Assembly: GCA_964019335.1 (NCBI GenBank)
Contig: OZ025658.1
Coordinates: 124,001-188,000, forward strand
Direction: 5' to 3'
Length of the DNA stretch: 64,000 bases
From: Diplonema japonicum
Lineage: Eukaryota; Protista; Euglenozoa: Diplonemea
Of the stretch, positions 26,398-63,501 are shown one piece after another (positions within the stretch are counted from its first letter, which is position 1; the number at the start of each line of letters is the position of its first letter). The notes beneath the pieces are model-generated. The model worked only from the letters and a program-made list of their open reading frames with translations, had not been told where the DNA came from and did not search any database. The translations under genes were made by a program, and so were the position numbers.

Positions 26398-26600
26398 CAT
26401 CGAGATGCAGGAGAACCCTTTGCTTGTCTCCAGCTCTCTTTTTTTCCCCCCACCTGTGCTGCTGTCAATCATCAAGCACCCCCCCCCCCCCCCCCCCCAT
26501 CGAGATGCAGGAGAACCCTTTGCTTGTCTCCAGCTCTCTTTTTTTCCCCCCACCTGTGCTGCTGTCAATCATCAAGCACCCCCCCCCCCCCCCCCCCCCC
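26398..26600 (+). repeat. Near-perfect tandem duplication of a ~100-nt unit ending in poly-C
   Basis: catcgagatgcaggagaaccctttgcttgtctccagctctc...tgctgtcaatcatcaagca(C)n occurs twice. Confidence 0.9.
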
Positions 26601-39758: not shown

Positions 39759-40664
39759 AGTTTTTTTTTTGTTTTTTGTTTCCCCCCCCCCCCTCCTTCA
39801 GTATGTTGATGGCGTGAGGTTTCTTTTAAAAAAAAAAAGAAAAAGAAAGGGATGGGAACGTGGGGGGCGAAGGAAAAAAAAAAAGAAAATGGGGAAAGGC
39901 CCGTCGGGAGAGGGGGGGAGTAAAGAGTGAAAAAAAAAGGGGGTATTTTCTTTTTTGGGGGTTGTGGGAAGCATGAATAAAAGAACTAGAATAAAGAATA
40001 AGGAAAAAAAAAAAAAAAAAAAAAGAAGAAGAAAATAGCTTATTAGTGTGGGATAGATTGCACCAACCCTCTCTCTCTCTCTCTCCCCCCCCCCCTTTTT
40101 TTTTCCCCTCCCTCTTTTTTTTTCTCAAGGAAAAAAACTTTTACTGAAGAAAAGTCGGGGGAAATTCAATAGAAACCGTAACAACGGTCTATTAAAAAAA
40201 GGGGGGGGGGGCAGGGTGAATCAATCCAACTAACGAACAACTAAGTAGTTGTATGCAGGGTCAAAGAAAAGAAAAATCCCTTTTTTTTGTTTCTTTTTTT
40301 CACCCCCCCTGTTAGTTTTCTTCTTTTTTTTAAGGAGAAACAGAGAGAAGGAAAGGGCTAATGGTGGAAGTGGTAGATAAATCACTTTTTTGACAAAAAG
40401 AAGGGGGAAGTGAAACACGAACTTCAAAAAAAAAAAAAAAAAGAAATAGAGGGGAAACAAAATGAATAACATATGATACCCTTTTCTTCTTCTCATTATT
40501 TTCTTTCTTTCCCCTCAACCTTCTTCCAATAGTGACCGCAATAATTATAATTTCTTTCAAGAAAAAAAATAAAATAAAAAAGGTTTTTTTTATCAATGAA
40601 AAAATAAAAAATAAGAGATGAGATAAAGGAGGTTCCTGTTTTGGAACGTCCCCCTTGTCTCTAC

Positions 40665-43600
40665 TTATCTACCCCTTTCTCCCTTCTGGGGCCTCGGCCT
40701 TTCTTTCTTTTTTGGCTGTGTTGCCTTCCTCAAAGTATCCTCCCTTTCTTCTTGCCACTTTCTGCCCAGTTTCTTAAGGTCCTTCTTGGTTTTCTCTGAT
40801 GCAAAAACTGGCCTTCTGTTCCATCCCAGACTCTTCTTCGCACCTATGGTTCTAAGCGCGTGGTTCTTCTGGCTCTCCGCTGGGAAGATCCGTTTGCCTC
40901 TGACCTTCTTCTGTATGCGTGCTGTGTCCCACCCCTCTTGGATTCTTTCCAGGAGGCCGTGGAAACTCCGCGCTTTCTTCTGTATCATGTCTAGATCACC
41001 CTTCTTCCCCGTGATCGGCTCGACGCCCAGCGTGTTCTCGAAGTCTAGTACGAGTTCCATTGTGGTGACTGTCGTCTTCCTCGGTCCATCGTACCACTTC
41101 AGCTTTTTGAGCCACTTGACGATGTCTTCACCGTGCTTCATCATCAGGCTCCCGCTCACATGCTTCCTCAGCTCCTTCCATTCAGGTGGCGCATGAGCGT
41201 TTCCTTCCGTTACCTGTTCCCAGGGGTGCGTCGTGTACGTTTCTAGCTTTCTCTTGTCCTGGAGAAGCTGGTCCCGTTTTGCCACCACTTCCAGCAGGTA
41301 GTATTGCGTCTTCCTCAGCCGGTGTTGGTGTGTTCGGTGACCACGCGGGAGCGTTCCATGTAGCTGCATGCAGATTGGCATTTCCGTCTTGCTGGCCACT
41401 ACTTCTGCATGTACTTCCTTCTGTTGCACCTCCTTCGCCACACTGCATTCCCATAATGCGTGTCGCAGCATGTTGCTCTCGTCCTCCTCCGCACCGCACG
41501 CGTCGCATGTGACTTCGTCTGTTGTTGGTCTCTTGTTCACACGCTCGTGTGTCTCGTCCCCTTCCTCTTCCGAGCTGTCCTCGCTTTCGCTCTGCTCGCC
41601 CTCTGGGGGTGGTACCCGTCTGGTGATTTTGTCCTGGTACCACGCCTTTGGGTGGGTGTAGAAAACCCCTCCCGCCACGATCCTCCGGAGGTCTCTCGCT
41701 GCCATTGCTCCTTGTGGTCCGAGTCTCATCAGCTCTCGCCACAGGTCGTTCGTGCGTGGGTCTGCGCCCCGGTCTAACCCCTCCATCGAGCGTCTTCTGT
41801 CCTGTATGTGTTCCGCACGTCCCGACCTTAGCTTTTCTCGCACTACATGTGCGAATTTGTCCTTGTTCTCAGCTAGCATTTCGGTGAACTGCCCCCAGTT
41901 TGTGCTGATCTTCGGGAGCCACCGCTTCATCGCGTTGCCTATCGGGCCCAAAGGTGTCGTTCTTGTCGGGTCTTGGTACCCTTTGGCAAGTCTCTGGCAC
42001 CGCTCCCACACCTCTCCCAATTTTCGTCTCGTTCTGTATATGGCTGCTAGTGCTCTGTAGGGCGCTGCTACCTCTGGGTCGTGTGTGTGTCCGCTGAACA
42101 GGTTTGACAGCACCGCCGCTGGTGATCTTGTTCTGTACCTCGGTCCCCACAAGGCGTATGTCGCGGTTGATGTGAGCGATTTGAGGTATCCTTCCGACGG
42201 CGGCGCGAATGCAACATCATACAGACAGCTGGGTAGCACCGTTGTTCGCAGGACTTCCGCTTTCTGCCAGAAAGAGAGCTGAGTGGTCGCGAGCCTCCGT
42301 AGCGTGTCGCCCGCCGCCCTGGCCCTGGTGTTGTCCGTCTGCGTCTGACCATCCGTGCGTATCCTCGCCCCCAGGACCTTGATCTTGTTCGTGGACCGCA
42401 GCTGCCTTCCTGCTACCTCTATCCCTGGTGCCTTCGCTCCTGCTGCGAACACTTCGGACTTCTTCGTGTTGAGCTCCATGCCAACTATGTCGCAGAATGC
42501 GGATGCACTGTCCGTGGCTTTTTGTAGTACTTCTGCTAGTTTCGCCAATAGGTATGCGTCGTCCGCATACGACAGAGTCTCCGCTCCCGTTCGTTCCTCC
42601 ACACTCCTCATCAAGACCGCTAGTAGAGCGTTGATCATGATGATGGAGATCGGGCACCCTTGCAGGATTCCGTTTGTGGTTGTGAACTCCTCGCCTACTC
42701 CTGTCGCGTATCTGAATCTCCTTCTGAGACCCTTGTACATCCCTTCTAACGCTCTCAGGATACCTTTGTCCATTCCCATCCGTTCCATCAGCTTCAGCAC
42801 CAGTTGTTGTGGAACTGTGTCAAAACACTTGGCGAAGTCTAGTGCGACACCCAACAACGGTGTCTTGTCCATCGCTGCTTCCTCTATCCTGGTGCAGATG
42901 TCCATGAGAACGTCCTCTGTCCCATGTCTGGCCCTAAACCCGTGTTGAGTTTTGTGGATCCAGGATTCTTGCCATTCGAGAATATCACCAAGCCTTGTGC
43001 ACGCCCATAATCTGTACACTGCCGACGTGACTGTTATGGGCCGATGCTCGAGTGGTCCTGCGTTCTTGGTCTTCGGGATAAGGGTCACCAGAGCTGTCAA
43101 CGCCGACTCCGGCCATTTTCCTGTCTCCTCTACCTCATTGAGGAAAACAGCCCATGCGTCCAATATGGATACTGGTAGCCTTCGTAGCTCTGCCATCCGC
43201 CAGCCGTCTACCCCCGCTGCGCTTCTGGCCGTCTTTTTCTTCAGCACCTGCTTCAGGCGTATCCCAGTGATCGGTGTCCACACCATGTCTCTTTTTTCGA
43301 TGTACGCACCGTACTCCTTCTCGAATGTTGCGTACGCGGGCTGGGGCTTGTCTCTGTATTTCGCAAAGACATGTTCCCAATGTTCCCTCATTGTCCTGTC
43401 CAATTCCTGCGGGTTTGCAATCGTGTCCTTTTCCATCTCCACAGTTGCTGTCCCCCGCTTGTCCTCGATTCCTTTCGCGCTGTCCACGAGCTCCTTCGTC
43501 TCTTTTCCTTGTTCGACTGAGTCAAGGTAGCTCCTGTGCCTTGCCGTGCGCTGTTCCTTCACCATCTCCCGTTCGCGTCTCTCCACCGCCTCTGACATGA

Positions 43601-45506
43601 TCTCTGCATCCGCCACCATGTCCTCGATGTTGGCCTGCGTCGGGTCAATGGGTAGGCACTTCACGCGCGTGTGTTCGAGCTCCCCGTTCAGGTTGTGGAT
43701 TGTGTTCACCGTAACCTTACTGAGCTGCCCTCCTCCTCTTTTCTGCAACATGTTGAGCTGCGTCTGAATGGCTCTCAGCCTGCCTCGCATTTTCTCCAGC
43801 CGTACTTGCATGATCGACGCTGCCCCACACGAGCCAGTTGTTGTTGGTGCACATAGTTGTCTCTGTTGCGGTTGTCTCACCTTGCCGCGGCCCCTATAAG
43901 GTGCCGTGCCGACGGTCTCGTCCCCCAGAAGTATCTTCTCGCTCGCCTCAGCTAGCGCGAGGTACGCCGCCTCCGGGTCTTTTCGCATGTGTTCCCTGAA
44001 ATTGCTCTCCTGGAGTGCCTTACTCCCCTCTTCTTCTGCTGGTTCCACGCCTCCTGGGATTTCTCGGGGTATCATGTATCTCTTCACAGTCTGCTGGAAT
44101 CTCGCAAGTCTCAGCTCTACCGTCAGAGTCATATGGTCCGCCCCCTTTACATCCCTGCTTGTTCTGCAGCCCTGTAGCGCCTGTGCTGCGAAAGCGTTCA
44201 GGAGGATGTAGTCGATCCTCGATGCACAGTTCTTCCGAGTGAAGGTTGGCATCGGGTCTTCTCCTTTTCCCGCTGCGCATGCTCCTGCCGCATCAGTCCA
44301 TCCGTTCATCAGCGCGTGACGAAGCTCATACGATCTTTTCTCGTCCGTGTTGAGGTCGCCTGCCACAATCACGGGGACGTTCCCGAGCTCCATCGCCTTC
44401 TTCCTGAGGACGTGCTGCAAGAGTCGTTCTCGTTGCCTCCTTGGTTCCTCTCCCTCCCCTGCTGGGCAGTACACGGTGATGATGTGCAGCCACATATTTT
44501 CCCCGTCTATGCTGACCCTTGTGTGTTGCCACCTACTGTTGATGTCTTGCTTAGCGTCATCCCTCTCGAGTGATGTTCCCAGAGCTGTTCGTGGCTCGCG
44601 TACAAAAGTCGCCAGGCCTCCTCGTCTTGCGATATCTATAGATATCAGACCTTCCTTGATCCTTCCCTGTTGCGGGTCTGCCCACATAGGTCTGTATTTT
44701 CGCTTCTTGTTCTTCTCTGTCGCGGATTTCATTGCGTGTGCCACCTCTTTCTGTCCTGCTGCCGTAAGTGCAGTCTCTTGTAGGCAGATCACGTCGACGT
44801 CGAGCTGCATGACGCTTTCCAGCCTGTTCCTCAGAGACGCTACATTTGCAGTTGCGAGATGGAAAACCTGTGTCGGTGGCTTCTTGGTACTGCCTGTTTG
44901 TTCACCCTCACTACTTAGGACTTTAAGTGTGCGGTTACCAGCCTTCTCATAGGGGGTATGGCGCCCCTGACTCGCCCCCGTCCCAGTGGTCAGGACACCC
45001 CTTCGTTCAGGGCCGGGTAGATTTCCCCGTTGTTGTAGAGTCGAAGTCTGGCCAGGTGCTGTAGCCTTCTTGTTCCGAGTACCAAGTGCCACCTTCAGCA
45101 GGTCCTCCATCTGCACTACCGTGGCCTCCGTCTTGCCCAACCAATCCATCATGTGTAGCGGCGCGAGTACAGCGTCGTAGTGCTGGGAGTCGTAAGCAAC
45201 TATAATCGTCTGCTTCGCCCCGTCTGGCTTCGTGGCTCGCACCATTCTCTTTTTGTGGAGGATCCAGATACATGTCTGGGTTGCCCATCCTGCCGCTCCG
45301 AGGGTGTAGTAGTCCCCCCACTCTCCGTCATGCTCAATCCTTCTGAGAGAAAGGGAGTGTTTCCTTGCTTCTTTGTAAAACTCCGGGTTCGTCGCGATGT
45401 ACTCTGCTGCCTGTGCGCGTACTGTGCTGGCGTTCCCTGCTCCTCGCGCCCTAGCAATTGCAGCGAACTGGCAATTTCCGTCCCCTTCCACTGGCATGTA
45501 TCTCAT
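40665..45506 (-). CDS. Retrotransposon 1 ORF2: OTU protease - APE endonuclease - reverse transcriptase - CCHC - C-terminal domain
   Basis: OTU: GDGNCQF...GEWG...QHY. APE: NVASL, CLQET, GDLN, RIDY, DH. RT: RPIT, QHGFR, DFAKCFD, GILQGCPIS, YADD. Zinc finger: CDAC...HALWEC. Confidence 0.95.
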   Translation of the reverse strand: MRYMPVEGDGNCQFAAIARARGAGNASTVRAQAAEYIATNPEFYKEARKHSLSLRRIEHDGEWGDYYTLGAAGWATQTCIWILHKKRMVRATKPDGAKQTIIVAYDSQHYDAVLAPLHMMDWLGKTEATVVQMEDLLKVALGTRNKKATAPGQTSTLQQRGNLPGPERRGVLTTGTGASQGRHTPYEKAGNRTLKVLSSEGEQTGSTKKPPTQVFHLATANVASLRNRLESVMQLDVDVICLQETALTAAGQKEVAHAMKSATEKNKKRKYRPMWADPQQGRIKEGLISIDIARRGGLATFVREPRTALGTSLERDDAKQDINSRWQHTRVSIDGENMWLHIITVYCPAGEGEEPRRQRERLLQHVLRKKAMELGNVPVIVAGDLNTDEKRSYELRHALMNGWTDAAGACAAGKGEDPMPTFTRKNCASRIDYILLNAFAAQALQGCRTSRDVKGADHMTLTVELRLARFQQTVKRYMIPREIPGGVEPAEEEGSKALQESNFREHMRKDPEAAYLALAEASEKILLGDETVGTAPYRGRGKVRQPQQRQLCAPTTTGSCGAASIMQVRLEKMRGRLRAIQTQLNMLQKRGGGQLSKVTVNTIHNLNGELEHTRVKCLPIDPTQANIEDMVADAEIMSEAVERREREMVKEQRTARHRSYLDSVEQGKETKELVDSAKGIEDKRGTATVEMEKDTIANPQELDRTMREHWEHVFAKYRDKPQPAYATFEKEYGAYIEKRDMVWTPITGIRLKQVLKKKTARSAAGVDGWRMAELRRLPVSILDAWAVFLNEVEETGKWPESALTALVTLIPKTKNAGPLEHRPITVTSAVYRLWACTRLGDILEWQESWIHKTQHGFRARHGTEDVLMDICTRIEEAAMDKTPLLGVALDFAKCFDTVPQQLVLKLMERMGMDKGILRALEGMYKGLRRRFRYATGVGEEFTTTNGILQGCPISIIMINALLAVLMRSVEERTGAETLSYADDAYLLAKLAEVLQKATDSASAFCDIVGMELNTKKSEVFAAGAKAPGIEVAGRQLRSTNKIKVLGARIRTDGQTQTDNTRARAAGDTLRRLATTQLSFWQKAEVLRTTVLPSCLYDVAFAPPSEGYLKSLTSTATYALWGPRYRTRSPAAVLSNLFSGHTHDPEVAAPYRALAAIYRTRRKLGEVWERCQRLAKGYQDPTRTTPLGPIGNAMKRWLPKISTNWGQFTEMLAENKDKFAHVVREKLRSGRAEHIQDRRRSMEGLDRGADPRTNDLWRELMRLGPQGAMAARDLRRIVAGGVFYTHPKAWYQDKITRRVPPPEGEQSESEDSSEEEGDETHERVNKRPTTDEVTCDACGAEEDESNMLRHALWECSVAKEVQQKEVHAEVVASKTEMPICMQLHGTLPRGHRTHQHRLRKTQYYLLEVVAKRDQLLQDKRKLETYTTHPWEQVTEGNAHAPPEWKELRKHVSGSLMMKHGEDIVKWLKKLKWYDGPRKTTVTTMELVLDFENTLGVEPITGKKGDLDMIQKKARSFHGLLERIQEGWDTARIQKKVRGKRIFPAESQKNHALRTIGAKKSLGWNRRPVFASEKTKKDLKKLGRKWQEEREDTLRKATQPKKKERPRPQKGERGR

Positions 45507-45587
45507 GAGCAGCTGTTCGGCTGTGCTTCGCAGGAGTTGCCTCTCCGTTCCCTCTGTCCTCCCGCCGCCCCTCCATGCTCCTGCGTT

Positions 45588-47270
45588 TCATCGCCTCACG
45601 CACGCGCGGCATACCTTGCGGCTGCATCCGTCAACCTGGCACCTAAGCTGGTACCGCTTCTTCGGCTGCTGCTTCTCGCAACCGTCGCACCACCACCTCC
45701 CCTGCTTCTTCTCGCCCTCGTCGCGGTCTGGGTAGATGTGGGCGTGCCTGTCCGTGTCCCTCTCCCTCCGCCTTCGCTCGGTGTCCCTCGCTAGGCTCCG
45801 GCTCTTCGACTTCGACGACGCCCTCGACTTCGTCTTGGCCCTCGAGGTCGTCGTCTCCGCCGCGTATCCTGCCGTGGCCTGTTCCTCGGGCTCCACCGAC
45901 ATCCTCACCCCAGACGGGGATCTCATCCTCGGCTTCGGTGATGGTGATCGTGATGCCGATTGTGTGGGGGGTGTCGTCTCCCTTGTTGACTTCCCTCCAA
46001 CCTTCCGTTTCTTCTCTGTTGGCTTCCCAGAGAGCTTCTCCAGCATTGCCTTCAGTTCTTGCACTTCCTTTCTGAGAGCTACCACCTCCTGTTCGAGCAT
46101 CTCTTCTTTTTTCGTAGGGCCTTGCAGTTGCTGCTGCTCCTTCTGTTGTTGTTCCCGCGTGTGCTGCTTTCCTTGTTGCTGTTGTTTTTCTTGCTGCGGG
46201 TGCTGTTGCTCAGGTGCTACCTTCCCAGCTTCGACCCACGCCTTCTGCCCGTGTGTCTTCCCGTATAGCGCCAGGAACTGGCGCTTCGTGTACGTGCGCC
46301 CCGCGTACTCTTCCGGGTCTGCGGGGTCCGTCCTCTTCTCCTCCTCCTGCTTTCGCACTGCCTTCGGCGGCGGCTTCCCTGCCTCCCACACCTCCGCCGT
46401 TCCTCCCTGCCATTTTATCTCCCCGAAACTTGGGGGTGCCTCCGCCTGCAACACAGCCACTGTGCCCCCCTGCTTCGGGATGGTGCGGATGACCACCGCT
46501 TTCCACCCTGCTTCTTTGACAACCTCCTCGATGGTGGTTGTGTCCGCGCCCTTCGGGAGACCTCGGATGTCGTAGGTGGTCTTTCTGACAACCCCGAGGC
46601 CTTCCTTCAGGAGGTACTCCTGCACTTCCTCCCTTCTCTCGCTGACCTGCAGGCCCCATCCCTTGCCGTTCAGCGTCAGTGTCGCCGAGGGGGTGATCCG
46701 TGTCATCACTGCCCCAAGTACGTTTTGTGCCAGCCAGTGCTGCCTTGTGGACATCCACAAGGCCCCCCTTTCCCTCCTCTCGATCTTCCAGGGACCGTCC
46801 TCGTTCCCTAGCGCGGTCCCCTCCTGTTCCGGTGCCATCCAGATTAGGAAATCCATGACAGATTCCCCCTTCTTGCCTTCCCTCTCCATGTGTGGCCCTA
46901 CGTGCACTCCCGTCAGGCCCGCCTTGCCGAGAAAAGCCATCACACTCTTTCTCGGGTCTTCCTTCGCCGCTTTCCATGCCTCGTCTCCTGCCGCCCACTC
47001 AGCCATGATGGCCCTGCAGGCGACCTCCTCCTTTGCGCCCTTCACCGGCGCCTTCTTCCTTTCCCCTCCTTTCCCGCTGGCCGCCTCCCTTGGCGCCACC
47101 AGCCGCTGCACCGTCACCGTCCCGCCACTCACCTTCTTCCCCACCCTCTCCGCCCAGTTTGGGCCCTGCCCGTCCCGGCGCGTCTGCACCGAGCTTTGCT
47201 CGGTCCCAGGGGCACCGCTTGGAGGTGCGCCGGGTTTGCTTGCTGATTGCTCTGATTGATGTTCGCTCAT
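45588..47270 (-). CDS. Retrotransposon 1 ORF1 (gag-like; coiled coil, basic region, terminal Cys finger)
   Basis: Long ORF directly upstream of ORF2, with coiled coil LEQEVVALRKEVQELK and terminal WCDGC...CQVDGCSRKVCRAC. ATG at 47270. Confidence 0.85.
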   Translation of the reverse strand: MSEHQSEQSASKPGAPPSGAPGTEQSSVQTRRDGQGPNWAERVGKKVSGGTVTVQRLVAPREAASGKGGERKKAPVKGAKEEVACRAIMAEWAAGDEAWKAAKEDPRKSVMAFLGKAGLTGVHVGPHMEREGKKGESVMDFLIWMAPEQEGTALGNEDGPWKIERRERGALWMSTRQHWLAQNVLGAVMTRITPSATLTLNGKGWGLQVSERREEVQEYLLKEGLGVVRKTTYDIRGLPKGADTTTIEEVVKEAGWKAVVIRTIPKQGGTVAVLQAEAPPSFGEIKWQGGTAEVWEAGKPPPKAVRKQEEEKRTDPADPEEYAGRTYTKRQFLALYGKTHGQKAWVEAGKVAPEQQHPQQEKQQQQGKQHTREQQQKEQQQLQGPTKKEEMLEQEVVALRKEVQELKAMLEKLSGKPTEKKRKVGGKSTRETTPPTQSASRSPSPKPRMRSPSGVRMSVEPEEQATAGYAAETTTSRAKTKSRASSKSKSRSLARDTERRRRERDTDRHAHIYPDRDEGEKKQGRWWCDGCEKQQPKKRYQLRCQVDGCSRKVCRACVRR

Positions 47271-48252
47271 GTTAGTTCCGCCCCCTGGAAAAAATAAAAA
47301 TTCTCTATGAATGGGAAAGGGCTTTGTTGAATTTAAAACAAAAAAAAAAAGGAGAAAAAAAAAAGTTGTCTCGATTTTTTTTTTTTTTTTTTTTTGCACC
47401 CTGCCCAAGTTTAGGGACCGGAGGGGACTTCTTTTTCAATTCCTTTTCTATGGAATCCAGAATAAATGCTCCTATGATGGAAATAAAAGCCCTCCCCTTT
47501 TTTCCTTTGCCGGAAAGTTCTCTCGTCAGATATGAACTTTCGGGACAGCTGCAAAAATATCATGAAAATGGGTACTTCGAGGTACGAGGGTCGGGAAGAA
47601 GGGAAACAAAGAAACAAAAACCCGATAAATTTAAAAAAAATTCACTATGATAGGAACGAAGTGGTTAGCAACGGCCCGCCAAAAAAAAAAAAGAAGGAGA
47701 AGGGGTCAGGGGGGGGAAGAGCAGCAGGTTTCCCCCCCCCAAAAAAAAAACGTGTCCCGCCTTAACATCATTGATTGGTTCCTTACCCATTTTGTATATT
47801 TTCTTTTTTTTTTGAGCGACAGAGCAAAGTGTATCAAAAAAAAAAAGTAAAAAAGCGAGAGAGAAAAAAAAAAGAATCGCCTACAGAAGATATGCATTGT
47901 GTCCCGTGCAGTGCCTGGGACTGACACTGTGTTTTGTTGGCTCTTGCTAGGAAGAAAAGAAAAATAAAGCTTTTTTTTTTCCTCTTTTTTATTTTATTTT
48001 GCTTCGGTCTCTTATTCTGTCGCTGCTAAAAAAAAAAAAAAAAAAAAAAAACCCACTCAGGAACCATTAGAAGGGGGACAGATACAGGGGAAAGATATGC
48101 CTGTCTCCTCCTCCCCTCTTTCCTTAGAAAAACAGAGAGAAAAAAAAAAAGATCTTTTAGAATACCCTATGCCCCAAGGAAAGCAACATGTCTTTTCTTT
48201 ATGCTGGAGGGGAGGAGGGAACAACAGGGTACATACCCGCCAAAGAAGGGCA

Positions 48253-48283
<31 letters not shown>

Positions 48284-49096
48284 CTTTTCGTGTAGCAAAA
48301 CTACTTTATCTATTAAAAACCTGATGCGCTTGATTTCCACTCTGTAGGCCTGTAGTTTAACGAGAGTTGTAGGTTCGCTTCACTTTTCACCCCGTCAACC
48401 GAAAGATCGGTACCGGTTCTTAAATGGAAGCAACAAAATTCACTCTTAATAAAGTAGGTAGCATCAATCTTGAGTTATAACACTGCTGTTCTGCTAATGC
48501 TGATTCTGAACAGCTTGTTAATCCAGTATTATTATTATTTTTTTTAAAAAAAAAAAAAAGTAAAGTCCCCAACATTATCACATATCATTCGCCAATACAA
48601 TGGACAGTAAAGAAAAAAAAAAAAAAAAAAAAAAAACAATTCACGATGATGGGGGAGGAAGAAACCTTCCTTGTCTATATCATAAACCCAAAGTACAGCT
48701 TCCTGAATGTATGACTGCAGCAAATCATCGAACTATATAAAACCCTTTATATTTTAAAATATATGGCAGATTACCCCCCCCAACCCTTTTCCCAGAAACA
48801 ACAAAAAAAATGCCGAATGGAGGGGGAAAAAAAGAAATCTTGGAAAGGAGGAGAGGGGAAAATAAGAACCTTAAAAGGGAGCACCAAAAAAAAAAAAAAA
48901 AAAAAAAAAAAAAACAAGAGGACGGGCAAAAAAAATTAAAAAAAATTCTTTTTCTTTTGTGAACCTTACCTTATTCTTGTGTATTCGTAGATTGCTTGTC
49001 AACCTTAGGAGAAATAAAAAAAAAAAAAAAAAAAAAAAAAACTCAAAGTACAGGACAAGCCCCCCGCTAGAGGGCCGCCCTATGGGAGGGGGGGGT

Positions 49097-52000
49097 CTAT
49101 CTGTTAATACTCCCCTTCTGGAGCATTGCTTTCATCCCGATTGTGGCTGCGAGCGTCTTGCGGAGTCGTGTGATGCGATCCCGCTTGTAGGCGGCCTTCA
49201 AATCCATCAGCTTGTCGTGCGTGGACTGGGTAGCAAAAATGGGCCTCCTGGAGAAGCCTATAGCTGCCTTTCCTCCTATGGCGATGAGGGATTTCACCCT
49301 TTTCTGCTCATCCGCTGGGAAGGGGCGTCGCTTCTTCCGTGCCCTGCACGCTGCGTTTATCTTTACGATTAGGGCCTTGATTCTGCGTGCCCTATCTTCC
49401 AGCAGGCCTCCTGATGATTTACCGGTCGTCCATTCGAAGTCAATGGCTAGCTCCACCGCCGACACCTCCGAGGCATTGTCCTTCTCCACCCAGCGCAGCT
49501 GTGACAACCAGGGTTCAGGTACTGGGACAGGACCCCACCCACTCCCTCGAGCTCGCCTGCTATCGGAACGGGGCATCTCTTTCCTACTACATTTCGTTCC
49601 CACGGTAGCGGCTGTGTGTTGACGTCCTCCTTCTGCACGAGCTCCACGTCCCGCTTCTCAACCACCACGGCCAAGTATCGTTGCAGTTTTTCCAGGTATG
49701 CAAAGGCATGTCCTCTCGGCAGTATTGCGTGTAGCTCAAGACACAGGGGCCATCCCGTCCTGTCGCGCAGCGGTTCCAAACCGTCCTGTGCCAGCTCGTC
49801 CCGTGCGCAGGCACACTCGTAAAGCTGATGGCGGAGTAAGGTTACCGTGTCCGGGTGTGGTGACTCACACAGGTCACACCTGAACCCTTGTGTGCGTGGT
49901 ACTTCCGTCGTTGGGACGTGGTCTATGCTGTCCCCGTCTTCCTCGGTGCCATCTCCTTCTGGTGCCAGGGGGACGCTCCTTTGACTCGTACCTGCATGCG
50001 GGCTAAGGTAGGGGACCCCTCCGGCGATCACCCGTCTCAGGCAGTAGGACATGAGTGGGTCCTTGGCTGTCTTCCACAGTTGGTTGGTTTTGGGATCCGC
50101 TCCCGCCTCCATCCCCTTCACTGTGCTTCTTTCGTTCGCCAGTGACCTGCTCCGGGCTTTCCTCACCGCGTCCCTAAAGGCGTGCCCGCGCTCGGCCCAG
50201 GGTTTGTTCCTACAGTCTAGCAGCTGCGTCCAGTTCCACCCTATGTAGGGGAGCCACCGACATATCAGGTTGCCTACTGGCCCCATTGGGATGGACCCCG
50301 TGCCGCACCCCGCAGCGATCCGTGTGCATCTCTGTCGCAGTCTCTCGTCGTCAAACGCTCTGGACACTACCTTCAGGGAGTGGTATATCACATAGGAGAG
50401 GGGGTCGCTGGTGTGCCCCTTCAAGAGGACCGTGTTGACCGCGGTTGGAGATCGTCCACGATGATGCGGGCCCCACAGATTGCATGTTACCCTCGTTGAC
50501 AACTTCTTGAGTGTCTCGTCACATGGGGGAGAGAACGGCCCGCTGTAGAGGCATGACGGGAGTACTGTCGTGCTGACCATGTGTGCTTTGGTCTCGAAAG
50601 CTAATCTCGTGCACCCTAGCCGGTTTAGTGAGTCAAGTGCATCCGTGGATGGTCTGTTCCATTTCGTTCCTGTCCTGCGCGTGTTGATCTTCACGCCAAG
50701 CCCTTTGAAGTCCGTCACTGTCTTGTAAGGTACAGCAACTACCGAGCCTTTCCTAATCGCCGTACGGTCTCCTACGACTCTCGACTTGTAACCCTCTGCG
50801 GTGCCAAAGCCAACCGTCTTTTCCTCGTTGACCTTCATGCCAGTCAGGTCGCAGAACTCCAGAGTCCCTTCGACCGCTGCTTGTAGGGAGTCGCGTAGCT
50901 TCGCTAACAGGTAAGCGTCGTCGGCATATGCTAGCACCTCGGCGTCCGGCGCTACTTGCTCGATGGCCCGTATCATGATGGAGAGCAGGGCGTTGATGAC
51001 AATGACCGACAACGGGCACCCTTGGAGGATTCCGTTTGTGGCCTCAAATGTGTCACCTACTCCTATGGGGTACTTGAACCTCCTTGTGATCTGGGAATAC
51101 ATCCCCTGGAGTGCTTTCCCTATGGACTCGTCCATCCCCAGGGCGTTCATGAGGTCAAGTGACAGCTGTTGTGGGACTAGGTCGAAGCACTTTCGAAAAT
51201 CCAGGGCTAGTCCCTCCAGAGGCTCTCCTTCCACCAAAGCCAGCTCCAGCTTGGTACACAGTTCTATGAGGGCTGTTGTCGTACTGTGCTTGGGCCTAAA
51301 CCCGTGCTGTCTCGGCGTGATCCAACGTTCCTGCCAGTCAAGGACATCCTTCAGCCTCGTACACGCCCACAAGCGGTAGATGGTGCTGGTCACTGTGATG
51401 GGTCGGTGGTTCAGCGGTGCTGACCCTTCACCCTTTGGTATCAGTGACACCCTTCTCCGGCTTCTTTTTGACCACTTCTCTTAGCCGCTCTGCTGTGATC
51501 GGGGTCCGCGTCATTGGGGTTTTCTTGATTAAGTCCCTGTAGCGTTGTGCGAATCGTTCGTACTGCGGCTCGTCTTCTGGTGTCCGCGCAGAAAAGATGC
51601 CCGACCAAGCATCCCGCACCACCTCGTCCATCTTCCGTAGGTTTGCGGTCACCCCGCCGTCTGCTGTCTCAACCACATCTGTCTTCTGGTTTGGGCGGTC
51701 TCTGACCCAGGCCGTGATGTGTCTGCGCTCCTTCCCAAAGTCTGAGCGTATTGAACGTTCGTATGCTTTCGCCTGCATGTTCTTGCGTTGTAGGAGCAGC
51801 TCCGATAACATTCCCTGGGCGTGGTCTTCAGCTATTTCCAGCTCTCCCCTGATGCTATCAATACTCCCTGCCGCGTCGGTCTTGCAGGACTCGACCTTCA
51901 GCTCTTCCCCCAACGTTGTAATGTTCCTGAGTGTGTTCCGTACCTCTACTGGGAGCGGCCCGCAGTGCCCGCCCTCATAGAGCTTTAACATTTGCTGTTT

Positions 52001-53085
52001 TGCGCTTCGGATTTTGAGCTTCAACTTCTCAAGTCGTTGTTGTCGATTTGTTGCCGCCCCAACTGTCGACTCCGTAGACCTCGCACTCAGCTCCGACTTC
52101 GTAGGCTCCCGAACCTTGCCTCTCCCGGTGTATACGCTGCGCACCGGACCCACGTATCCATGTAGTAGGTACTGCTCCGCGAGGTCTGCTATCTCCGAGA
52201 ACGCTTCGGTGGGCTTCTGCGCCGTAATGAACTCACGGTATTTCGACTTCTGCATCAGTGTCTCCGCTACTCCGGTGGGTGCCCTCTTGGTCTTCAGTAT
52301 CTCCTGCGGGACGGTGTATCTTAGGACTTCTTGTCGGAAGGCTGGGATGTTGAGTGTTACCGACAGGCATCGGTGGTCCGACCCGGAGATAGCCTCGTTT
52401 ACTCCACAGTGTTCGAGCCCCTGGGCCGCGATGTTGTTCAACAGTACCCTATCCACCCGCGTACTGCAGTTGGTTCTGACAAGCGTGCTCTCTACCTGCA
52501 CTCCATCCCTCCGAGCACAGAACGCAGCGGCGTCTACCCAGTCCGTCTGTAGAGCCCTCCTTAGCGTGGCGGAACGGGTTTCGTCCGTGTTGAAGTCACC
52601 CATCACGGCCACCGGCACGTCTCCCAGCTCGAACTTGAGTCGGTGTAGTAGGTAATGGAGAAGCTCCTCACGGTACTTCGCCTTCGTCGGGTCTTGTCCT
52701 GAGTGGCAGTATACATTCACCAGATGAAGCCATCGCTTGTTCCCATCAAGTGAGATTTTCACGTGTGACCATCTGTCCTTGTGCGGCCCAGCCGTTTCAC
52801 AGACCACCGCTGTCCGTGGTTTTTTCACAAAGGTTCCTAGTCCGCCCCGCTTCGCTATCGTCAGAGACGTGACACCCTTGGTCTCCCTCCCCGGCTGAGG
52901 TTTGCTCCAGAATCTGGTGTATTGTTTGCCCCAAACATCATCTCTCAGCACGTGTTCAATCTCCATCTGAGTCTGTGCTGTGAGGGCAGTTTCTTGGATG
53001 CAGAATGCGTCCGGGAGGACAGTAGAGTACTCACCCAGCCGGTTGTTTAGTGCTGAGCCGTTGTGTGTGAAAATGGTGAAGAATG
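49097..53085 (-). pseudogene. Retrotransposon 2 ORF2 (APE-RT-CCHC-CTD), broken
   Basis: FTHNGSAL, CIQET, GDFN, RVD, SDH, QHGFR, GILQGCPLS and YADD. Frameshifts near 51450 (about 48 codons deleted relative to element 1) and near 49600. Confidence 0.9.
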
Positions 53086-53220
53086 GTGGGGTTCGACACC
53101 TTGTTCGATGAGGCGTTCAAATTTCTTGTCAGATAGGCGTATCGGATTGTATTTGGATGGACGGGAAAGGGGGGGAGGGAATGGGTTTGAAGGGTGGGTT
53201 TGGGGGGAGTTCCCCTGTAG

Positions 53221-55323
53221 TCACTGCTCGCTTTGCTCGCATCCGCGGCACTTTACCCTATTGCAGTCTAATATTATGCAGGACTGTGCTGGGTTGTTTT
53301 TCGTGATATTCCCGTTGCAGTAGTGGCACACCCCCTTCCAGTATTGGTATGTCCCGTTGTAGACGTGGCATATGCCTTTGCCCAGGCAGTCGTTGATGTC
53401 GGTGCCCTCATCTAGGTCGATGTCGGTGTCATCGTCAGTCGGGGGGGGACCCAAGTCATCCTCCGTCTCCATGTCGTCGTTTTCTCCCTCCTCGGTTAGC
53501 GAACGGGGCTGGTCCTTGTCCAGTCTCGAGATCGTCGCCTCCGTGAGGGCTTTTATCTGCTCGGTGAGAGCTGCCATCTGGGTGCGCATCTGCTGGACCT
53601 CCCCTCGCAGCTGCGCGTTCTCTCTCCGCAGTTCGATCACTTCCGCAGATGGCTCGTCGTCTCTGCTCGGTTCCCCCGCCAGCTTGCGGATCGCATTTTC
53701 GATTGCTGTGAGGCGGTCTGTGGCGGTTTGTGGCCGGGCTGGGTGGACCCCGTCACTGCGCCTAGGTAGGATTTGCCTGTGGCTGTGGTCCCTGTCTTCG
53801 GTCTTCCCCAGGACTGTGCAGTCGGTGTCTTTTTAGTGGGCGGGCCCCCCATGTCGGGTGCTATCCTGCAGTGGAGGATCAGCCCTGTCGGGGATGTGAT
53901 TCTCAGCGTCGTGGTAGGGGGTTTGCCTCCCCGAATGTACCAGCACCTCCCGTCGTTGCTCCAGCCGCCGTGTAGAGGAACGGCATCCCATTTCATGGTG
54001 CGGAGTATCAGTTCCACGTGCTCCACACCGCACTGTCCGTACAGGCCCGTCAGACGCCACCTCGGCTCCCCATGTTGTCCGCGCTGTCGTTCATCCTCGC
54101 CCAACACCTTGTCAAGGAGCGCGGTCTTCTCCCCCTCCGACGTCCTCACACCGAGGCGGCAGTCCGACTCACGAATCGCTAACCCCTGCTTTTCCGCTTC
54201 TGCCAATTCGAGCGCTTCCTTTAAAGTGGTTTCCTTCGGGAGCCAAGCGACGGGGGATCTCGGCACATCCTTCGGTCTAACGAAGATCCCTCCCCTTCCG
54301 GACGTGTTCACGAATCTGTCGAGGCTGCTTTTCGGGACCGTCACCAGTACGTCTACCCTCGGGGTCGGACCCTCCACGATCTTGTCGATCCTGTGGATTG
54401 TCTTGCAGTTCAAGTCCCGGAGGAGCTTTCGGGGTTGGGAGGTTATATTCTCCCACGTCTGGGCCGAGGCGTGCGCTTTCGAGAAGATAATCGCGACCCG
54501 CGCGAATCTTGCCCCCAGGTTGATGTCCACTGTGTCACTTGATGTGCGCATGGCAATCCTCCCGCCAGTAGGAACATCTTCCTGTTCGTGAACTCTCCTT
54601 CCGCCTTGAGTACAACGTCGTACTCATCCCGGCGCTTCAGGATGAGCGCTTTGTTCCCGTCCCATGCCATCTTCTCGGCCTCCTTCACGTTCTCCTCGGT
54701 TGGATGGCAACGCCGTCCTTTCCCGCCACCAGCTCATCCCACGTCACGAAGGGCTGGTCAAACTGCCCTTGCTCCAGGGACCAGCGTTTCGCTGCCTGCG
54801 GTTGTTTCTGCGGCGGTTTGCTGCTCGGCCCTCTCCAGGCTCTCGCCTCGCCGTCTGAGGTCGGGATGCCTACCCGTGGCAGCTTGAACTCCTGCACTAC
54901 TTTCTTCAGAACGTTCACGTTGAACGGTTCTGACGCGTTGAGGTAAGCCCGGCCGTCGAAGGCGACGTGGATGGGCAGCTTTTTGGACTCTCCCGAGATA
55001 GGGGAGACTGTGAGGGCGCCGTTTTCGACTGCCATTAAGCGGATGTCGATCTTCCATGCGCGGGCGGTGGCCTGGATGGTGACCAGGTCGGCGGCGGTGC
55101 CTTCCTTCGCGTGCTGGGTGCAGTAGGCATCGTAGTCCCCGGTGACGTTCACCCGGTATTCTTCGCTCCCTCGCAACTCCTGTACCATGCGGCGTCTAAT
55201 GTCGCTCCCCTTCTTCCCCGTCTTCTCCCCGACCACTCCGTAGAAGGAGTTCCCGTTCCCGTTCCCGTACGCCCTCCTGTGCGCCGTCATCCCGAAGCCC
55301 TTCATTGCTTTAAAGATGTCCAT
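53221..55323 (-). pseudogene. Retrotransposon 2 ORF1 with N-terminal inactive OTU-like domain, broken
   Basis: Four overlapping ORF fragments (frameshifts near 54690, 54560 and 53740). Coiled coil IELRRENAQLRGEVQQM; terminal CHYC...CIILDCNRVKCRGC. Confidence 0.8.
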
Positions 55324-55430
55324 GGCTGATGCGTCTGGATCGCTGATGTTGATGTTTACGATGCAGATACTGATGTGATGCTTGCGTTCTCCTCTCCTTT
55401 CTTTTCCTTCACTCCTTTGCACTAATCCCG

Positions 55431-55557
55431 AAACTTTTACACTTCTTAAACCTATGCACTTCCGTTAAACCTTACACTTCCGTTGAACTCCGTTAACTTT
55501 TATACTTCCTTCAAACCTTTACACTTCTTTTAAACGTCTACACTTCCGTTGAACCTT
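55431..55557 (-). repeat. Degenerate tandem repeat in the retroelement 5' UTR (~18-20-nt unit, ~6-7 copies)
   Basis: Minus-strand consensus AACGGAAGTGTAAAGGTTT (plus strand aaacctt(t)acacttccgtt). Confidence 0.8.
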
Positions 55558-55639
55558 GATGTCGCGTTCTTTACTTCCAATATTTGTATTTTCTTTTCAA
55601 ACCGTTACTGAGTGAAACTTTATTGGCACGGTCGGACAC

Positions 55640-55676
55640 CAATAAAGTACAGAAACTGTAGCTTTAGAATCGTTGG
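55640..55676 (-). ncRNA. Spliced-leader exon copy (37 nt of the 39-nt diplonemid-type SL)
   Basis: Minus strand CCAACGATTCTAAAGCTACAGTTTCTGTACTTTATTG. It carries the euglenozoan SL core CAGTTTCTGTACT.TATTG and differs at only about 2 positions from the Diplonema SL as I recall it. Confidence 0.88.
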
Positions 55677-57313
55677 GGAAAAAAAAACCAGAGAAATAAA
55701 ATAAAAAATGAAAAACATAAATAAGCCTGAGTAATTCCGTATCCTTCACATTTTCACAATGCCTCTAGTGAAAAGTAAGAATGATCTTTTTTTTTTATTT
55801 TTTTTAAATATATTCTTCTTTCTTTTCTTTTTTTTTGTGTAAAGATATAAATCAATTCTTTTCACCTTCAGAAAACACAACGAGGAAGAAAAAAGCAGGG
55901 GGAAACGGTGTATATATTCAATGGGGAAGAAAAGAAAAAAAAAAGAGGGAAAAAAAAAAAAGGAACTGGCAAAAACAAGCACTCTAACCGACCCATGGGT
56001 AAGCAACTAACATGATTTGTCAAAAAAAAAGTATTACGGTTCACTTTTTTCTCCCCCCCCCCTGAAGTATTCGAATCTCGAGCCACTTTGCTCGGGGTAA
56101 AACCTTAAAGCAAAAAAAAAAGAAAAAAGAAAAGAGAGAGAAGAAAGAAAGAAGAGTGTTGCGGTTTTATTGTTTGTGCAAAGTAGGTTTTAGCTTAAAA
56201 GCCGTAACAAAGCTGGGCCCCCCGGCTTTTTTTTTTTTTTAAAGCCGTAACAATTCACTTACAATTGTTGCTTTTTTTTTCCCCTCTTTTTTTTTTCCCT
56301 TCTCAAGAGAGAGAAAAAAAAAGAATTTTGACAATCGTTTAACAATTCAGGCAGCAAGGTTAAAGAAATAAATAATGTTATTATTGCTATTTGGGTGTGA
56401 GAACTGAGTAAAAAGCGCATATGGGGGGGGGAGTCCATAATTTTCAATCGGGAAAAAAAGATTATTTTAGGGAAGGGAGGGGAAGGGGGGGTGGGGTGCT
56501 GCACCCTCTCTCTACCTCTCTACCAGCCCTAGTTCTTATCAGGGTTCTGGTCTTGCCCCCCCCCCCCCCCCCCCCCCCCCAAAGAAAAAAAGAATACTGT
56601 GAAGTGATAACCCCCAGGACCGACAAACTGTGAGGGAGTGTTCTTCCGGAAACCTTTCTTACAGCCGTTTTGGTACAACCCTGGATGCGGTTGCGAAGAA
56701 ATCCTATCTGTTATTCTCGCCTGGATTCTTCACTTTGCAGTAGGAAAAAAAAAAAAAGAAACTACACAATAAGAATGTAAAGAATTGACAGAATATCGTT
56801 TTTTTTTTTTTTTTTTCTTCTTCTTCTTTTTTTTAAACAACTATGCTGCAATTTCCCCTGTTTTTATTGATCTAAAGAAAGAGAGAGAGACAGAGAGACC
56901 ACATATGTTTGTGTAGGTTTCTCCATGTTTTTCTTTTTTTTTTTTTTTTTTTTTAGCAATTAAGAACCAGCACCGAGGCTGCTCGCTTTTTAAAAAAAAG
57001 GGGGGGGAGGGGTGATCACCAATAAAAAATGGGAGGTAGTGTCTAGTTTAACGACCTAAAATATTTTTTTTTTAAAAAAAAAACCCATATCTGTACTGAT
57101 TTATTTTGGTTGCTGTTGGTTGCTGACTTTCTTTTGCTTGGGGGGTTTTTTTTTGTTTTTTTTTTACTTTAGATTAGATTTCTTTTCTTCTTTAAAAAGA
57201 AGTTCGTTTTTGTTTTTTTTTGTTTTTTTGTTTTTTTTTTCTTTTTGTTCAAAATTGCGTTGACAGTGCAGCTGGTGTGCAGTCTTTCTATCCCGCTGTA
57301 CTAAAAATAAATA

Positions 57314-58944: not shown

Positions 58945-60590
58945 TCATGCCCAGACCTCCAACCTATGAGTCACCAATCCCTTACACATGGGACATGATT
59001 GCAGCTCCGGAGCACAACTATCGCAGACGCTCAGGTGCCGACATGGCATTAAAACCGTGTTCTTGACCGCGATTTTACACACTATGCAATTCTTCTTCAA
59101 ATTCTTCCGGTCCCGAGTACGAGGGGACGCCGGGGGGGAAAGACCCTCCTCATCCGAGGTAATGTCTTCAGTGTCATAATCTTCATCACCCGTGAAGCTC
59201 GATTCCGATTCACAATCCTATTTTTTTTTTTTTTTTTTTCCCCTTCCCCACATACATCATCAGAATCGTCTGTCGTTTCATCACCCCAAGTATACTGGCC
59301 GGAGACCCTTCCTGAAGGAGGATGTGTTGGTGAGGTATGGGTACTGCCTGGCAACGGTGGCAACGCGACACTTGTGGCTTTTTTCGTTTCGACAACACGC
59401 CTTCTCGGCGATGCTGGTGAGGAACTTCTCGTAGATCGGAAACTACTCCGAGTTGACGATGAGCGCGTCTTCAGCCCGTCCCCTTGCGCGAGAAGATCAG
59501 GACGGCACGCTCCGCACACCGCACATACCTCTCTGTCGCTGTTCCTGAAAAGACAAGCGGGACACGCCCAAATTCGTATTTTACAAGCAGCACCACCCCA
59601 TAAGTTATGGTTCACACAAGCTGCGTCGCATAGAATACCGATTTTAGGGATGATGTCTTTGAAATCCTCGCCGAGCTGTGCTTCGTAAGCGGCGCCCTTG
59701 GCGGATGTCAAGCGGAGGAGTTTGTCACGATCGGTGACAAGCTCAATGTTGAGGATGGAGCTCACCCACGTCGCGCTGCTGTACAGCTCCAAACGCGACG
59801 TTTGTGACAACGACAACGAAAGCGCCTCACCGTCCGCAGTCGTGAAATGAACAAGCGTATCACCGCTTGATTCAATATCTTCAAGCGACAACGATGCCGG
59901 TGCCCTCATAGAATACCGCCTGATGGCTTGGGAAAGCGCGGGTTGCGGCGTTCCCGCCGGTAGCCGAGTCGCGTCAGTCCAAGAAGGATGCTGGTACCCA
60001 ATGGCAGGGGACTGTGGTATCCATAGTTGAGGAGGGTGGATACGCCCTGTTATGTCGCAGAATGGCGGTGCGGATCTGATGACCATCCCGCAGTCCTCGC
60101 ATCGTGCCTCGCTAGGGGGTTGGGGTTCAACCTCTCTTACGTATAACCATATATCGTGTTTGACTGCCGCTAAGTCAGCGAGTCGGGCAGTGAATAGTAG
60201 GGTGGCGTTTAGTGCAGTGGTCCATTCGGCTTCTGATATCACAAGGCCTCTTGAGGTTTTGACGGTGATGTACTCGTCATCACTTACCGCTACCTTGAGG
60301 CCTGTGATGGCCTTCTTCCATGTTCCGTCTACGGTGTACTCTAGCCTGCTTCGTTTGCAGAGGAATAGTTTTACTTCTTCGCCTTCGGGGCCTCTGAGGC
60401 GGACCATGTCGCCGCGTGTCTCGGCGGCTTGTAGTGCTGCTGCGGGGGGCTCCTCTTTCAGTTCTCGCCGCCGTTTTCTTCTGTTCATTCTGTGTTGCTT
60501 CCTCCTCGCCCGCCGCCTCTCTTTTTTCTCTTTCCTGCGCTCCCTTGATACCGACGTCATCGTCTTGCCTGTGCTGCCCCCCGCGCCCAT
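58945..60590 (-). CDS. N-myristoylated RING (C3HC4) E3 ligase with RanBP2-type zinc finger, 2 exons
   Basis: MGAGGS start; WACPACLFRNSDREVCAVC. Intron 59218-59255 joins to CIVCKIAVKNTVLMPCRHLSVCDSCAPELQSCPMC...EVWA*. Confidence 0.85.
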
Positions 60591-61589
60591 TATTTTTCTT
60601 TTTTTCCTTTTTTTTTTTTTGTAATGCAGTTATGTGGCACAGCGGAGTCTTTCTTTGAATGAATGAATGAAATAAAAAAAATAAAATAAACAACGGTGTT
60701 TTCAAAAAAAAAAATAATAATAATAATGAAAAGAAAATAGATTAAATAATAGCAGATGTTTCAGAGAAGCACCTTTTTTAAAGAAAAAAGCCCCCCCCCT
60801 TAATTCCTATTTGTATTCTTTTTTTCTTTTTTTTTCTTTCTCAGCCAATATTCTCTCCTACCTTAGAGGGTGATCGGGTGTAACATTAAAGGCGATATCA
60901 CCATCGGCAAAGTGAACACACCTTGGAACGAGATAAGATTGAATAAAAGCTGTCTCGCTTGCTCCCCCCATTTTCTTTCTTTCGACAAAAGAAGAGGGGG
61001 AGAAAAAAAAAGGAGGGAGCGCTTATTTTTTTTCCCCCTTCCTTCTTTTTTTTCGTGTCATCCCTATTTCGTTTGAGCTCAGCCTGCTAGAGGGTTTATC
61101 TATAAAAAAAAAAAGAAGAAAAGGCTTAAAACACCATTGCTGACCAACACTCCCCCCCCCCTTTTTTTCTTCTTATTTCTCGGTTGAAATAATTTAAATT
61201 CAACAAATTTCTTTTTTGTAATCCATGAACCAAGATTGGCATATGGCGGCGGGGGGGGGGGGGGGGGGGGGAGAAGAAAAAAACGAAAAAATCTTGCGAA
61301 GTAGATTTTTTTTTTTTTTTTTTTTGCTTCCCACCTTAAGCTTCTTCTCCAAAGGGTGGAGGGATCACATTTACCATTTTATTCAAATTTCTTTTTAGTG
61401 ATCCCCGTGTATAGCTTCCTCTCTCTCTCTCTCTTTTTTTTTTACTCATACCTTCCTCTCCGGGAGAAATGAGAATGGATGGAAAAAAAAAGGGTGGGAG
61501 GGCGGGGGAATCGTAATTTTACTGACCTGAAAAAAAAAAAAAAAAAAAAAAAAAAAAGGAGAAAAACCCCGCCAATGTCGTCCTTTCTT

Positions 61590-63036: not shown

Positions 63037-63501
63037 GGTGCCGCCTGTTGAGGTAGACGTGGTGATAGAATGTAAAAAAAAAAGAGGAAGGTGCACTATT
63101 TTCTTTTATTTTACGAGAGCGAAGCAAAGCACACCGTAAGGAACAAAGAAGAAGAAGAAGAAGAAAAATGGAGAAATCTTATTGAGAGAGCGATCATTGT
63201 TTCTATTTCTGTCGTCGACTTTGCATGAAAACCCAGGGGGGGGGGGATATTTTGAGACACTAAGATAACTTAGAAAAGAAAATGTTGATGACGTCACACC
63301 ACACCACAGCAGGGAGGGTACTATTTTGATTCTAGAGGAGCGAGAAAAAAAAAAAAAGAAAAAAAGAGGGGGAAAGATAGGTCATCCTCCTCCTCCTCCC
63401 CTGTTCCTCATGCAAGCAACTGGAATCAATTCATAAGTAAAATACCAAAGTTTTTTCTTACTTTTTTTTTAATGGGGGAACATAAAAAAACGTTGACTGG
63501 A

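Follow-up and report, generated by a model that had tools for sequence, protein, structure and literature searches.

How the second open reading frame (ORF2) of two-ORF long interspersed nuclear elements (LINEs) is translated remains debated. The window analysed here, a whole stretch of 64,000 nucleotides (nt) from Diplonema japonicum (contig OZ025658.1, positions 124,001 to 188,000), contains a tandem pair of such elements, element 1 and element 2, both on the minus strand. They offer a case that can be tested, in a lineage whose model species, Diplonema papillatum, has many related elements in its genome. The question is how ribosomes reach ORF2 in these two elements. We propose that it is likely made by occasional readthrough of a UGA stop codon between ORF1 and ORF2, which share a frame, and we give this reading a probability of roughly 0.55 on the strength of the sequence comparisons below. 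It is favoured because both elements have coding sequence, in the ORF1 frame, ahead of any usable ATG.

Elements 1 and 2 are APE-type retrotransposons without long terminal repeats (LTRs): Pfam PF03372 (apurinic/apyrimidinic endonuclease, APE) followed by PF00078 (reverse transcriptase, RT) is found in ORF2 of both, and L1 ORF2p is the top solved structural relative. Their ORF2s are 33-42% identical to one another. The best named relatives are retroelement proteins of D. papillatum (approximately 41-44% identity), and unnamed transcript-derived proteins are closer (46-59%). The Ingi/L1Tc clade has a single ORF, no ORF1 and a C-terminal RNase H. Here, ORF1 is present in both elements, and the Pfam scan gave no RNase H match in either. 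The copies compared were the two elements of the window and contigs from X1, X4, X8, X12 and X14. Contig depth over both elements is far greater than over the DNA between them and rises steeply toward both 3' ends, as expected for dispersed, 5'-truncated LINE copies, although summed depth is not copy number. Both ends run into T/A tracts, and a comparison aimed at 3' tails and target-site duplications found only low-complexity words shared at the ends.

Element 1 has the following parts:

47267 down to 45591 (45591..47267, minus strand): ORF1, 559 amino acids, with a Gln-rich and coiled-coil stretch, a Ser/Arg-rich tail and a C-terminal six-Cys finger (45689-45600).
45588..45590, minus strand: the single in-frame TGA, in the context CGA TGA AAC; an overlapping ATG opens only a short ORF in the -1 frame.
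45507..45587, minus strand: 27 codons without ATG, with WRGGG at codons 5-9 (a candidate cleavage site or linker) and the N-terminal helix of an OTU domain at codons 11-25.
45150..45557, minus strand: the OTU domain, with intact catalytic Cys (codon 39) and His (codon 136); the ATG at 45506 lies inside the fold.
40665..45149, minus strand: the rest of ORF2, comprising linker, APE, RT (YADD) and a C-terminal Cys/His motif, uninterrupted.

ORF1 of element 1 thus runs from the ATG at 47267 to the TGA at 45590-45588, and beyond it 1640 codons are open in this frame, down to 40665. The first in-frame ATG of ORF2 is at 45506, codon 28. An earlier note on this DNA had seen that 45590 and 45506 share a frame with no further stop between ORF1 and ORF2, and this is correct. 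It had also seen that both ORF1s end in TGA a few codons after a Cys finger, and here too the details agree: the finger is of the same type in both (C-x2-C-x12-C-x4-C-x4-C-x2-C), and the stop follows the last Cys by 3 codons in element 1 and 5 in element 2. A homologous finger near the stop places the stop at a homologous position in two distant families.

The codons ahead of the ATG at 45506 appear to belong to a folded domain. Sequence comparison and a structure model both give element 1 an OTU fold in which the Cys, His and Asp residues are present, and its Pfam match has an E value of 2e-4, just under the cut-off. AlphaFold, run on a 14-row alignment, predicts an OTU domain with confidence (mean pLDDT 88); in this model codons 11-25 form a helix that is likewise confident (pLDDT 84-96), and residues 1-8 are unstructured. 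OTUD1 was the best structure match (Z 17.0, rmsd 2.5, 135 residues aligned, model range 8-142), and OTUD3, DUBA and Otu2 were also matched; the alignments of OTUD1, DUBA and Otu2 begin at model residues 4-9, whereas viral OTUs align only from residue 18-21. The 19 pre-ATG residues fit five OTU-ORF2 homologues better than shuffles do (P 0.015), and only 22 of 1982 background windows score as well. These homologues were picked via APE and RT, and two unrelated OTUs were left out, having been selected by the query itself.

Element 1 and the homologues P0055, P0109 and P0118 share a Gly-Gly 30-36 residues upstream of the catalytic Cys, against a background of 5-14%. It is kept in three of the four relatives that extend far enough, the fourth, P0127, having it 61 residues away; four homologues are too short, and the two unrelated OTUs have none. 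Because the pre-ATG codons appear to encode the OTU helix and this shared Gly-Gly, translation of element 1 ORF2 likely enters upstream of any AUG. The Gly-Gly of element 1 is moreover only 7-8 codons past the stop, and we infer that it is sensible there mainly if a large upstream protein is attached.

Element 2 is composed as follows:

55640..55676, minus strand: a spliced-leader-like stretch at the 5' end, which Rfam did not flag.
54889..55323, minus strand: a pseudo-OTU that opens ORF1, beginning at the first ATG past the leader, with Cys changed to Ser and His to Ala.
53224..55323, minus strand: ORF1, in three frames in the window copy, ending in a six-Cys finger (53328-53239).
53218..53223, minus strand: TGA-CTA, with the stop at 53223-53221; the other copies keep TGA and the two bases that follow, and the sixth base varies synonymously.
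53086..53220, minus strand: a spacer of 45 ATG-free codons, with a Pro-rich linker and then a 2A-like peptide whose PGP end is deleted in the window copy and intact in others.
49097..53085, minus strand: ORF2, with APE, RT and a Cys/His motif, frameshifted in the window copy.

The spacer of the window copy ends in LIEQGVEPH, as the earlier note had read it, but the frame there does not join APE, and a private 22-nt deletion has removed the PGP end of the 2A-like peptide. Other copies show what the junction looks like without this damage. Eleven contigs were compared over this region: three from X1 (possibly the window's own source), seven from X4 and one from X14; X8 spanned the region in the broader contig listing and gave no contig in this narrow comparison. 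Read by hand, they form four lineages with 2, 17, 22 and 17 substitutions. In two of these, a net 22 nt more than in the window copy restore ...VEPHPGP in frame with APE; the X14 contig has a loose end that, over its length, agrees with the longer form, and the one lineage left stops short of the site. The deletion of the window copy was seen in no other element 2 lineage. Two further indels were seen close to the stop, one of +6 in the spacer and one of -9 in the ORF1 tail.

UGA-CUA is a leaky stop context. TGA and the two bases after it are unchanged in every contig that covers them (3/3 from X1, the three of seven from X4 that reach the stop, and 1/1 from X14), and where the sixth base varies Leu is unchanged. 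A private nonsense mutation, which the earlier note had named as one outcome that would overturn its reading, therefore fails as an explanation for element 2, since the TGA occurs in all four other lineages seen and the spacer indels are multiples of three. Of the leaky context that it noted in element 2, the copies keep UGA-CU, with a variable sixth base; element 1 has UGA-A. A single in-frame stop conserved among copies and followed by a coding extension is thus found in element 2; in element 1 the coding extension is found and copy-level data are limited.

Substitutions in the element 2 spacer fall preferentially at codon position 3 (12 of 21, P 0.02). The excess comes out most clearly in the last 25 codons (7/9, P 0.008), and the 3' half of the spacer is, on this pattern, under synonymous-biased selection. 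The first in-frame ATG lies past the QET motif of APE, beyond APE motifs I-II. A start of ORF2 at its own ATG consequently fails for element 2, and for element 1 it is weakened by the OTU fold assigned to the pre-ATG codons. Openness of the spacers by itself proves little, since 28% of shuffles of the element 2 spacer and 50% of those of element 1 are free of stops.

On the basis of these observations, we hypothesise that ribosomes occasionally read the UGA and so would make an ORF1-ORF2 fusion, which would set a high ratio of ORF1 to ORF2. In the element 2 family a 2A-like skip immediately ahead of APE would split the fusion; in the element 1 family it might be cleaved after the Gly-Gly ahead of the OTU domain. 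A release module makes most sense on a fusion protein. The C-terminal core of 2A (StopGo) peptides is (D)(V/I)ExNPGP, with a Gly-Pro end. In the other copies of element 2 the core reads ...GVEPHPGP, in which PGP and Glu fit and Asp is replaced by Gly and Asn by His, so that a skipping peptide is plausible, with a non-canonical motif. Self-cleavage by the OTU, which the conserved Gly-Gly weakly suggests, would be the weakest step of the scheme, because OTUs are normally deubiquitinases; we know of no cellular OTU that processes itself, and the related cases known to us are viral, where OTU-like proteases cut their own polyprotein. A further reason is that OTUs occur in other transposons (PMC2836005). 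The OTU of element 1 may be a plain deubiquitinase carried on ORF2. The earlier note had also linked a dead OTU in element 2 to the presence of its 2A. This link is unsupported: the OTU of element 2 retains its fold and has Ser and Ala for the catalytic Cys and His, as read in the window copy, but it starts ORF1, approximately 2 kb upstream of the junction, and so is not the positional counterpart of the OTU of element 1.

The wider clade shows how the two modules are distributed. Among 207 fetched proteins, 82 have a recognisable APE start and at least 12 residues before it. At the front of ORF2, 43 of these carry a 2A-like motif only, 12 an OTU only and 27 neither. None carries both, which agrees with the view of the earlier note that OTU and 2A are alternative devices; a P value for mutual exclusion is overstated, as relatives share labels. 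An RT tree was built from 35 rows, with one dropped as too short and with no reference elements of named LINE clades (L1, RTE, CR1 etc.). In it, element 1 groups (100/100) with three siblings, one bearing an OTU and two a 2A, and the two modules are mixed in another supported clade as well. OTU and 2A modules are therefore interleaved within supported clades. We put forward only tentatively, as a doubtful but appreciable possibility, that this is a LINE clade with a retrovirus-like plan, a leaky-UGA polyprotein from which Pol would be freed either by a self-cleaving OTU, cutting after its own Gly-Gly, or by a 2A skip, the two being interchangeable and repeatedly replaced among close relatives.

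Some further features of these modules were noted. P0022, P0043 and L046 have two tandem 2A-like motifs ahead of APE, and many distant relatives have a GEAxNPGP-type variant after a hydrophobic leader. In L014 (3221-4786), ORF1 of a distant relative has by eye an LRGG after a ubiquitin-like-looking segment, hinting that Gly-Gly processing sites may recur in the group. The OTU-APE linker of element 1 (44880-45070, minus strand) appears unusually conserved in comparison with P0067 and has a motif ending in PGP that is out of register with the 2A core.

The junction frames of relatives are more varied. In 55 fetched loci, eight had a readable ORF1/ORF2 junction: L002, L005 and L006 have both ORFs in one frame with one in-frame TGA, L009, L012, L014 and L046 have ORF2 in the -1 frame (L014 and L046 being decayed), and L001 has it in +1. 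The identity of ORF1 in L002 and L006 rests on short tails. An association between a shared frame and TGA (5/5 against 1/5, Fisher P 0.024) was set aside, as the comparison was post hoc and 52-84% of the stop triplets in these sequences are TGA. The D. papillatum proteins P0021 and P0022, in which ORF1 is fused to 2A/APE, were not counted, as gene models may splice out stops. Scans of viral contigs yielded nothing useful. In L009 (111-6650) and in protein P0004 the ORF2 frame is open in -1 across most or all of ORF1 (approximately 510-780 codons), and in L009 the ATG of ORF2 overlaps a second TGA in frame, a short way past the TAG of ORF1.

Several results weigh against readthrough. Same-frame junctions in three of eight distant relatives are at chance level. 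Closer at hand, in P0004 and P0005, which fall in the clade of element 1 itself (100/100), ORF2 is in -1 relative to ORF1; the N-terminus of P0004, a 2A sibling, matches the -1 frame of element 1 ORF1 with a score of 263 (shuffles 159 +/- 21, maximum 236). No stimulatory RNA structure above shuffles follows either stop (z -0.6 and 0.0). In element 1 the context TGA-AAC is not leaky by the rule given above, ORF2 has a usable-looking in-frame ATG, and conservation of the stop is seen only in near-identical contigs and one transcript-derived protein; one contig that spans the stop (X12 record 3) has an unplaced net +4 nt within 45371-46061. The Gly-Gly test is post hoc and has three homologues, with P0127 at its different spacing. 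In element 2 the invariance of TGA is not by itself a significant result (chance 0.4-0.6), no third-position excess is seen over the first 20 codons of the spacer (5/12, P 0.37), and the 2A-like peptide is non-canonical at two positions, of which the His variant lowers activity in L1Tc (PMC3708506).

X8 record 25 and X12 record 3 span the stop of element 1 with 2 and 0 substitutions, the former with an unplaced net -6 indel. The OTU-APE linker of element 1 has no RNA structure above shuffles, and the best window (z -2.7), one of 34, ends just past the element 1 stop. ORF1 of element 1 matches no Pfam family at the cut-off, and a search for its homologues among proteins of up to 979 residues returned only itself; a fused form of element 1 is likewise absent among the retrieved proteins of 886-2821 residues.

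The best surviving alternative to readthrough is that ribosomes terminate at the UGA of ORF1 and reinitiate a few codons downstream without an AUG, the 2A or Gly-Gly serving to trim a variable N-terminus and the shared frame being incidental. We consider this unlikely but by no means negligible. Initiation of L1 ORF2 is considered AUG-independent (PMC5009743, PMC5972666), and relatives without a usable ATG occur both in frame 0 (L002) and in -1 (L014). Over the first 20 codons of the element 2 spacer no signal of selection is seen, so that a non-AUG start within the spacer is possible and the entry point is not fixed, and the lack of a stimulatory structure points the same way. However, the one indel that the four lineages show in the C-rich 5' part of that spacer is in frame, and the spacer has no in-frame CTG, GTG, TTG or ACG anywhere. 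The Gly-Gly of element 1, so close to the stop, also speaks against this reading.

It is less probable again that element 1 ORF2 starts by reinitiation at the ATG at 45506, 81 nt past the stop, with the OTU an ordinary deubiquitinase and recoding, if any, confined to the element 2 family. This ATG lies just ahead of the OTU core and is the start of P0001, a transcript-derived protein called as a complete ORF; the siblings P0067, P0003 and P0083 likewise begin close to the catalytic loop. For several solved OTU domains the alignment sets in no earlier than model residue 21-26, and the TGA-A context favours the same reading. Against this, the helix ahead of the ATG is homologous and is modelled with confidence, and sibling OTU-ORF2s differ in where their first Met falls (13, 11 and 6 residues ahead of the catalytic Cys). 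In P0003, a start at the first Met would cut off the strand ahead of the catalytic loop; gene callers choose the first Met by rule.

A third possibility, which we regard as improbable, is that the working junction of the clade is -1, by frameshift or by an overlapping stop and start, and that the same-frame state is derived or damaged. The -1 junctions of P0004/P0005 and of L009, L012, L014 and L046 would all fit, as would the ATG that overlaps the TGA in the -1 frame of element 1. But the -1 ORF that this ATG opens has no similarity to OTU, element 1 is otherwise intact, and identical contigs occur at several times the inter-element depth. The lineages of element 2 agree on frame 0, with an overlapping ATG in only one of them. 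Finally, it is hardly credible that ORF2 comes from a separately trans-spliced subgenomic mRNA or that UGA is reassigned in the host: euglenozoan mRNAs are trans-spliced (PMC10161547) and the element 2 spacer is pyrimidine-rich and followed by AG, but no ATG of element 2 would yield an intact APE and the element 1 spacer is purine-rich, and reassignment was rejected as no TGA interrupts host ORFs of up to 1485 codons and several of them terminate in TGA.

The state and surroundings of the two elements may be described briefly. The spliced-leader-like end of element 2 suggests that the RNA from which this copy derived was full-length and trans-spliced. Its ORF1 has an extra base at 54702, which is borne by all listed depth there in X4, X8 and X14. 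Element 1 has instead a pyrimidine tract and CAG approximately 14 nt upstream of the ORF1 ATG, and its ORF1 region is deeper in contigs than its ORF2. Contig coverage is very deep at the 3' ends (40600-41100 and 49050-49550), and one contig joins the 5' end of element 1 to its 3' end (40709 to 47270), so that short non-autonomous derivatives are likely.

The window otherwise holds intron-poor eukaryotic genes with long A/T tracts between them. One host gene (19252-23709, minus strand) has, by eye in translation, four tandem metacaspase-like repeats. Two neighbouring paralog-like genes (59097-60629 and 61600-63105, minus strand) have Cys-containing repeats and an MGAG start, a possible myristoylation start. 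A tandem duplication of approximately 100 nt at homopolymer runs (26454-26601) is possibly an assembly artefact. No tRNA was found in the window, and Rfam over 40000-57000 gave nothing near gathering score, with no selenocysteine insertion sequence (SECIS) and no ribozyme flagged.

How does this arrangement compare with known systems? In gammaretroviral gag-pol, a leaky stop sets the ratio of structural protein to enzyme and a processing step frees the enzyme. The earlier note had proposed the same logic here. The shared frame, the kept stop and the coding spacers agree with it, but the parallel is one that we infer, and some close and distant relatives use a -1 junction. Unlike gammaretroviruses, moreover, elements 1 and 2 have no LTRs, integrase or aspartic protease, and no downstream stimulatory structure was found.

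The closest counterpart among LINEs is in Paramecium tetraurelia, where readthrough has been proposed for Group 3 non-LTR elements from consensus sequences of 12 families (PMC5405496). As here, an APE-RT ORF2 is in the ORF1 frame after one in-frame stop, and in most families a zinc finger lies close to the end of ORF1; the sister groups have ORF2 in another frame. In contrast to the present elements, Group 3 is a ciliate clade with different finger types and, in the accessible text of that paper, no annotated 2A or OTU (PMC5405496). Mammalian L1 and silkworm SART1 are similar in having a bicistronic LINE RNA with unconventional translation of ORF2, but L1 has a 63-nt spacer and an AUG and SART1 an overlapping stop and start, and both are explained by reinitiation models without a release module (PMC5972666, PMC5009743).

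The release modules too have counterparts. Active 2As are widespread in retroelements (10.64898/2026.09.24.754024). L1Tc/Ingi and other APE-type elements have a 2A-like peptide directly before APE, as in element 2, and L1Tc has a natural Asn-to-His variant (PMC3708506). L1Tc keeps the Asp of the motif where element 2 has Gly, and most 2A-bearing APE elements lack ORF1, with three CR1 exceptions named; no passage on readthrough was found in the accessible part of that paper (PMC3708506). A deubiquitinase (DUB) domain at the front of ORF2, as in element 1, occurs in Symbiodinium OTU-ORF2p and Haematococcus Josephin-ORF2p, and two pseudoscorpion ORF1-2A-ORF2 proteins have a 2A between ORF1p and ORF2p in one open frame (PMC13405545). 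Unlike here, the DUB-bearing proteins of that 2026 preprint come from a 2A-selected set, so that DUB and 2A can co-occur, and its accessible text describes no stop readthrough, self-cleavage site or exchange of OTU and 2A (PMC13405545). The D. papillatum genome paper leaves its elements for later analysis (PMC10161547). A literature search, with most subscription papers, Repbase and the supplements of the 2A preprints outside its scope, turned up no account in which readthrough is joined with exchangeable OTU and 2A modules.

The separate parts of the scheme therefore have precedent, and what would be new is their combination. If the proposal is right, elements 1 and 2 suggest a purpose for two unexplained additions to ORF2, the 2A peptide and the DUB domain: to free Pol from an upstream fusion.

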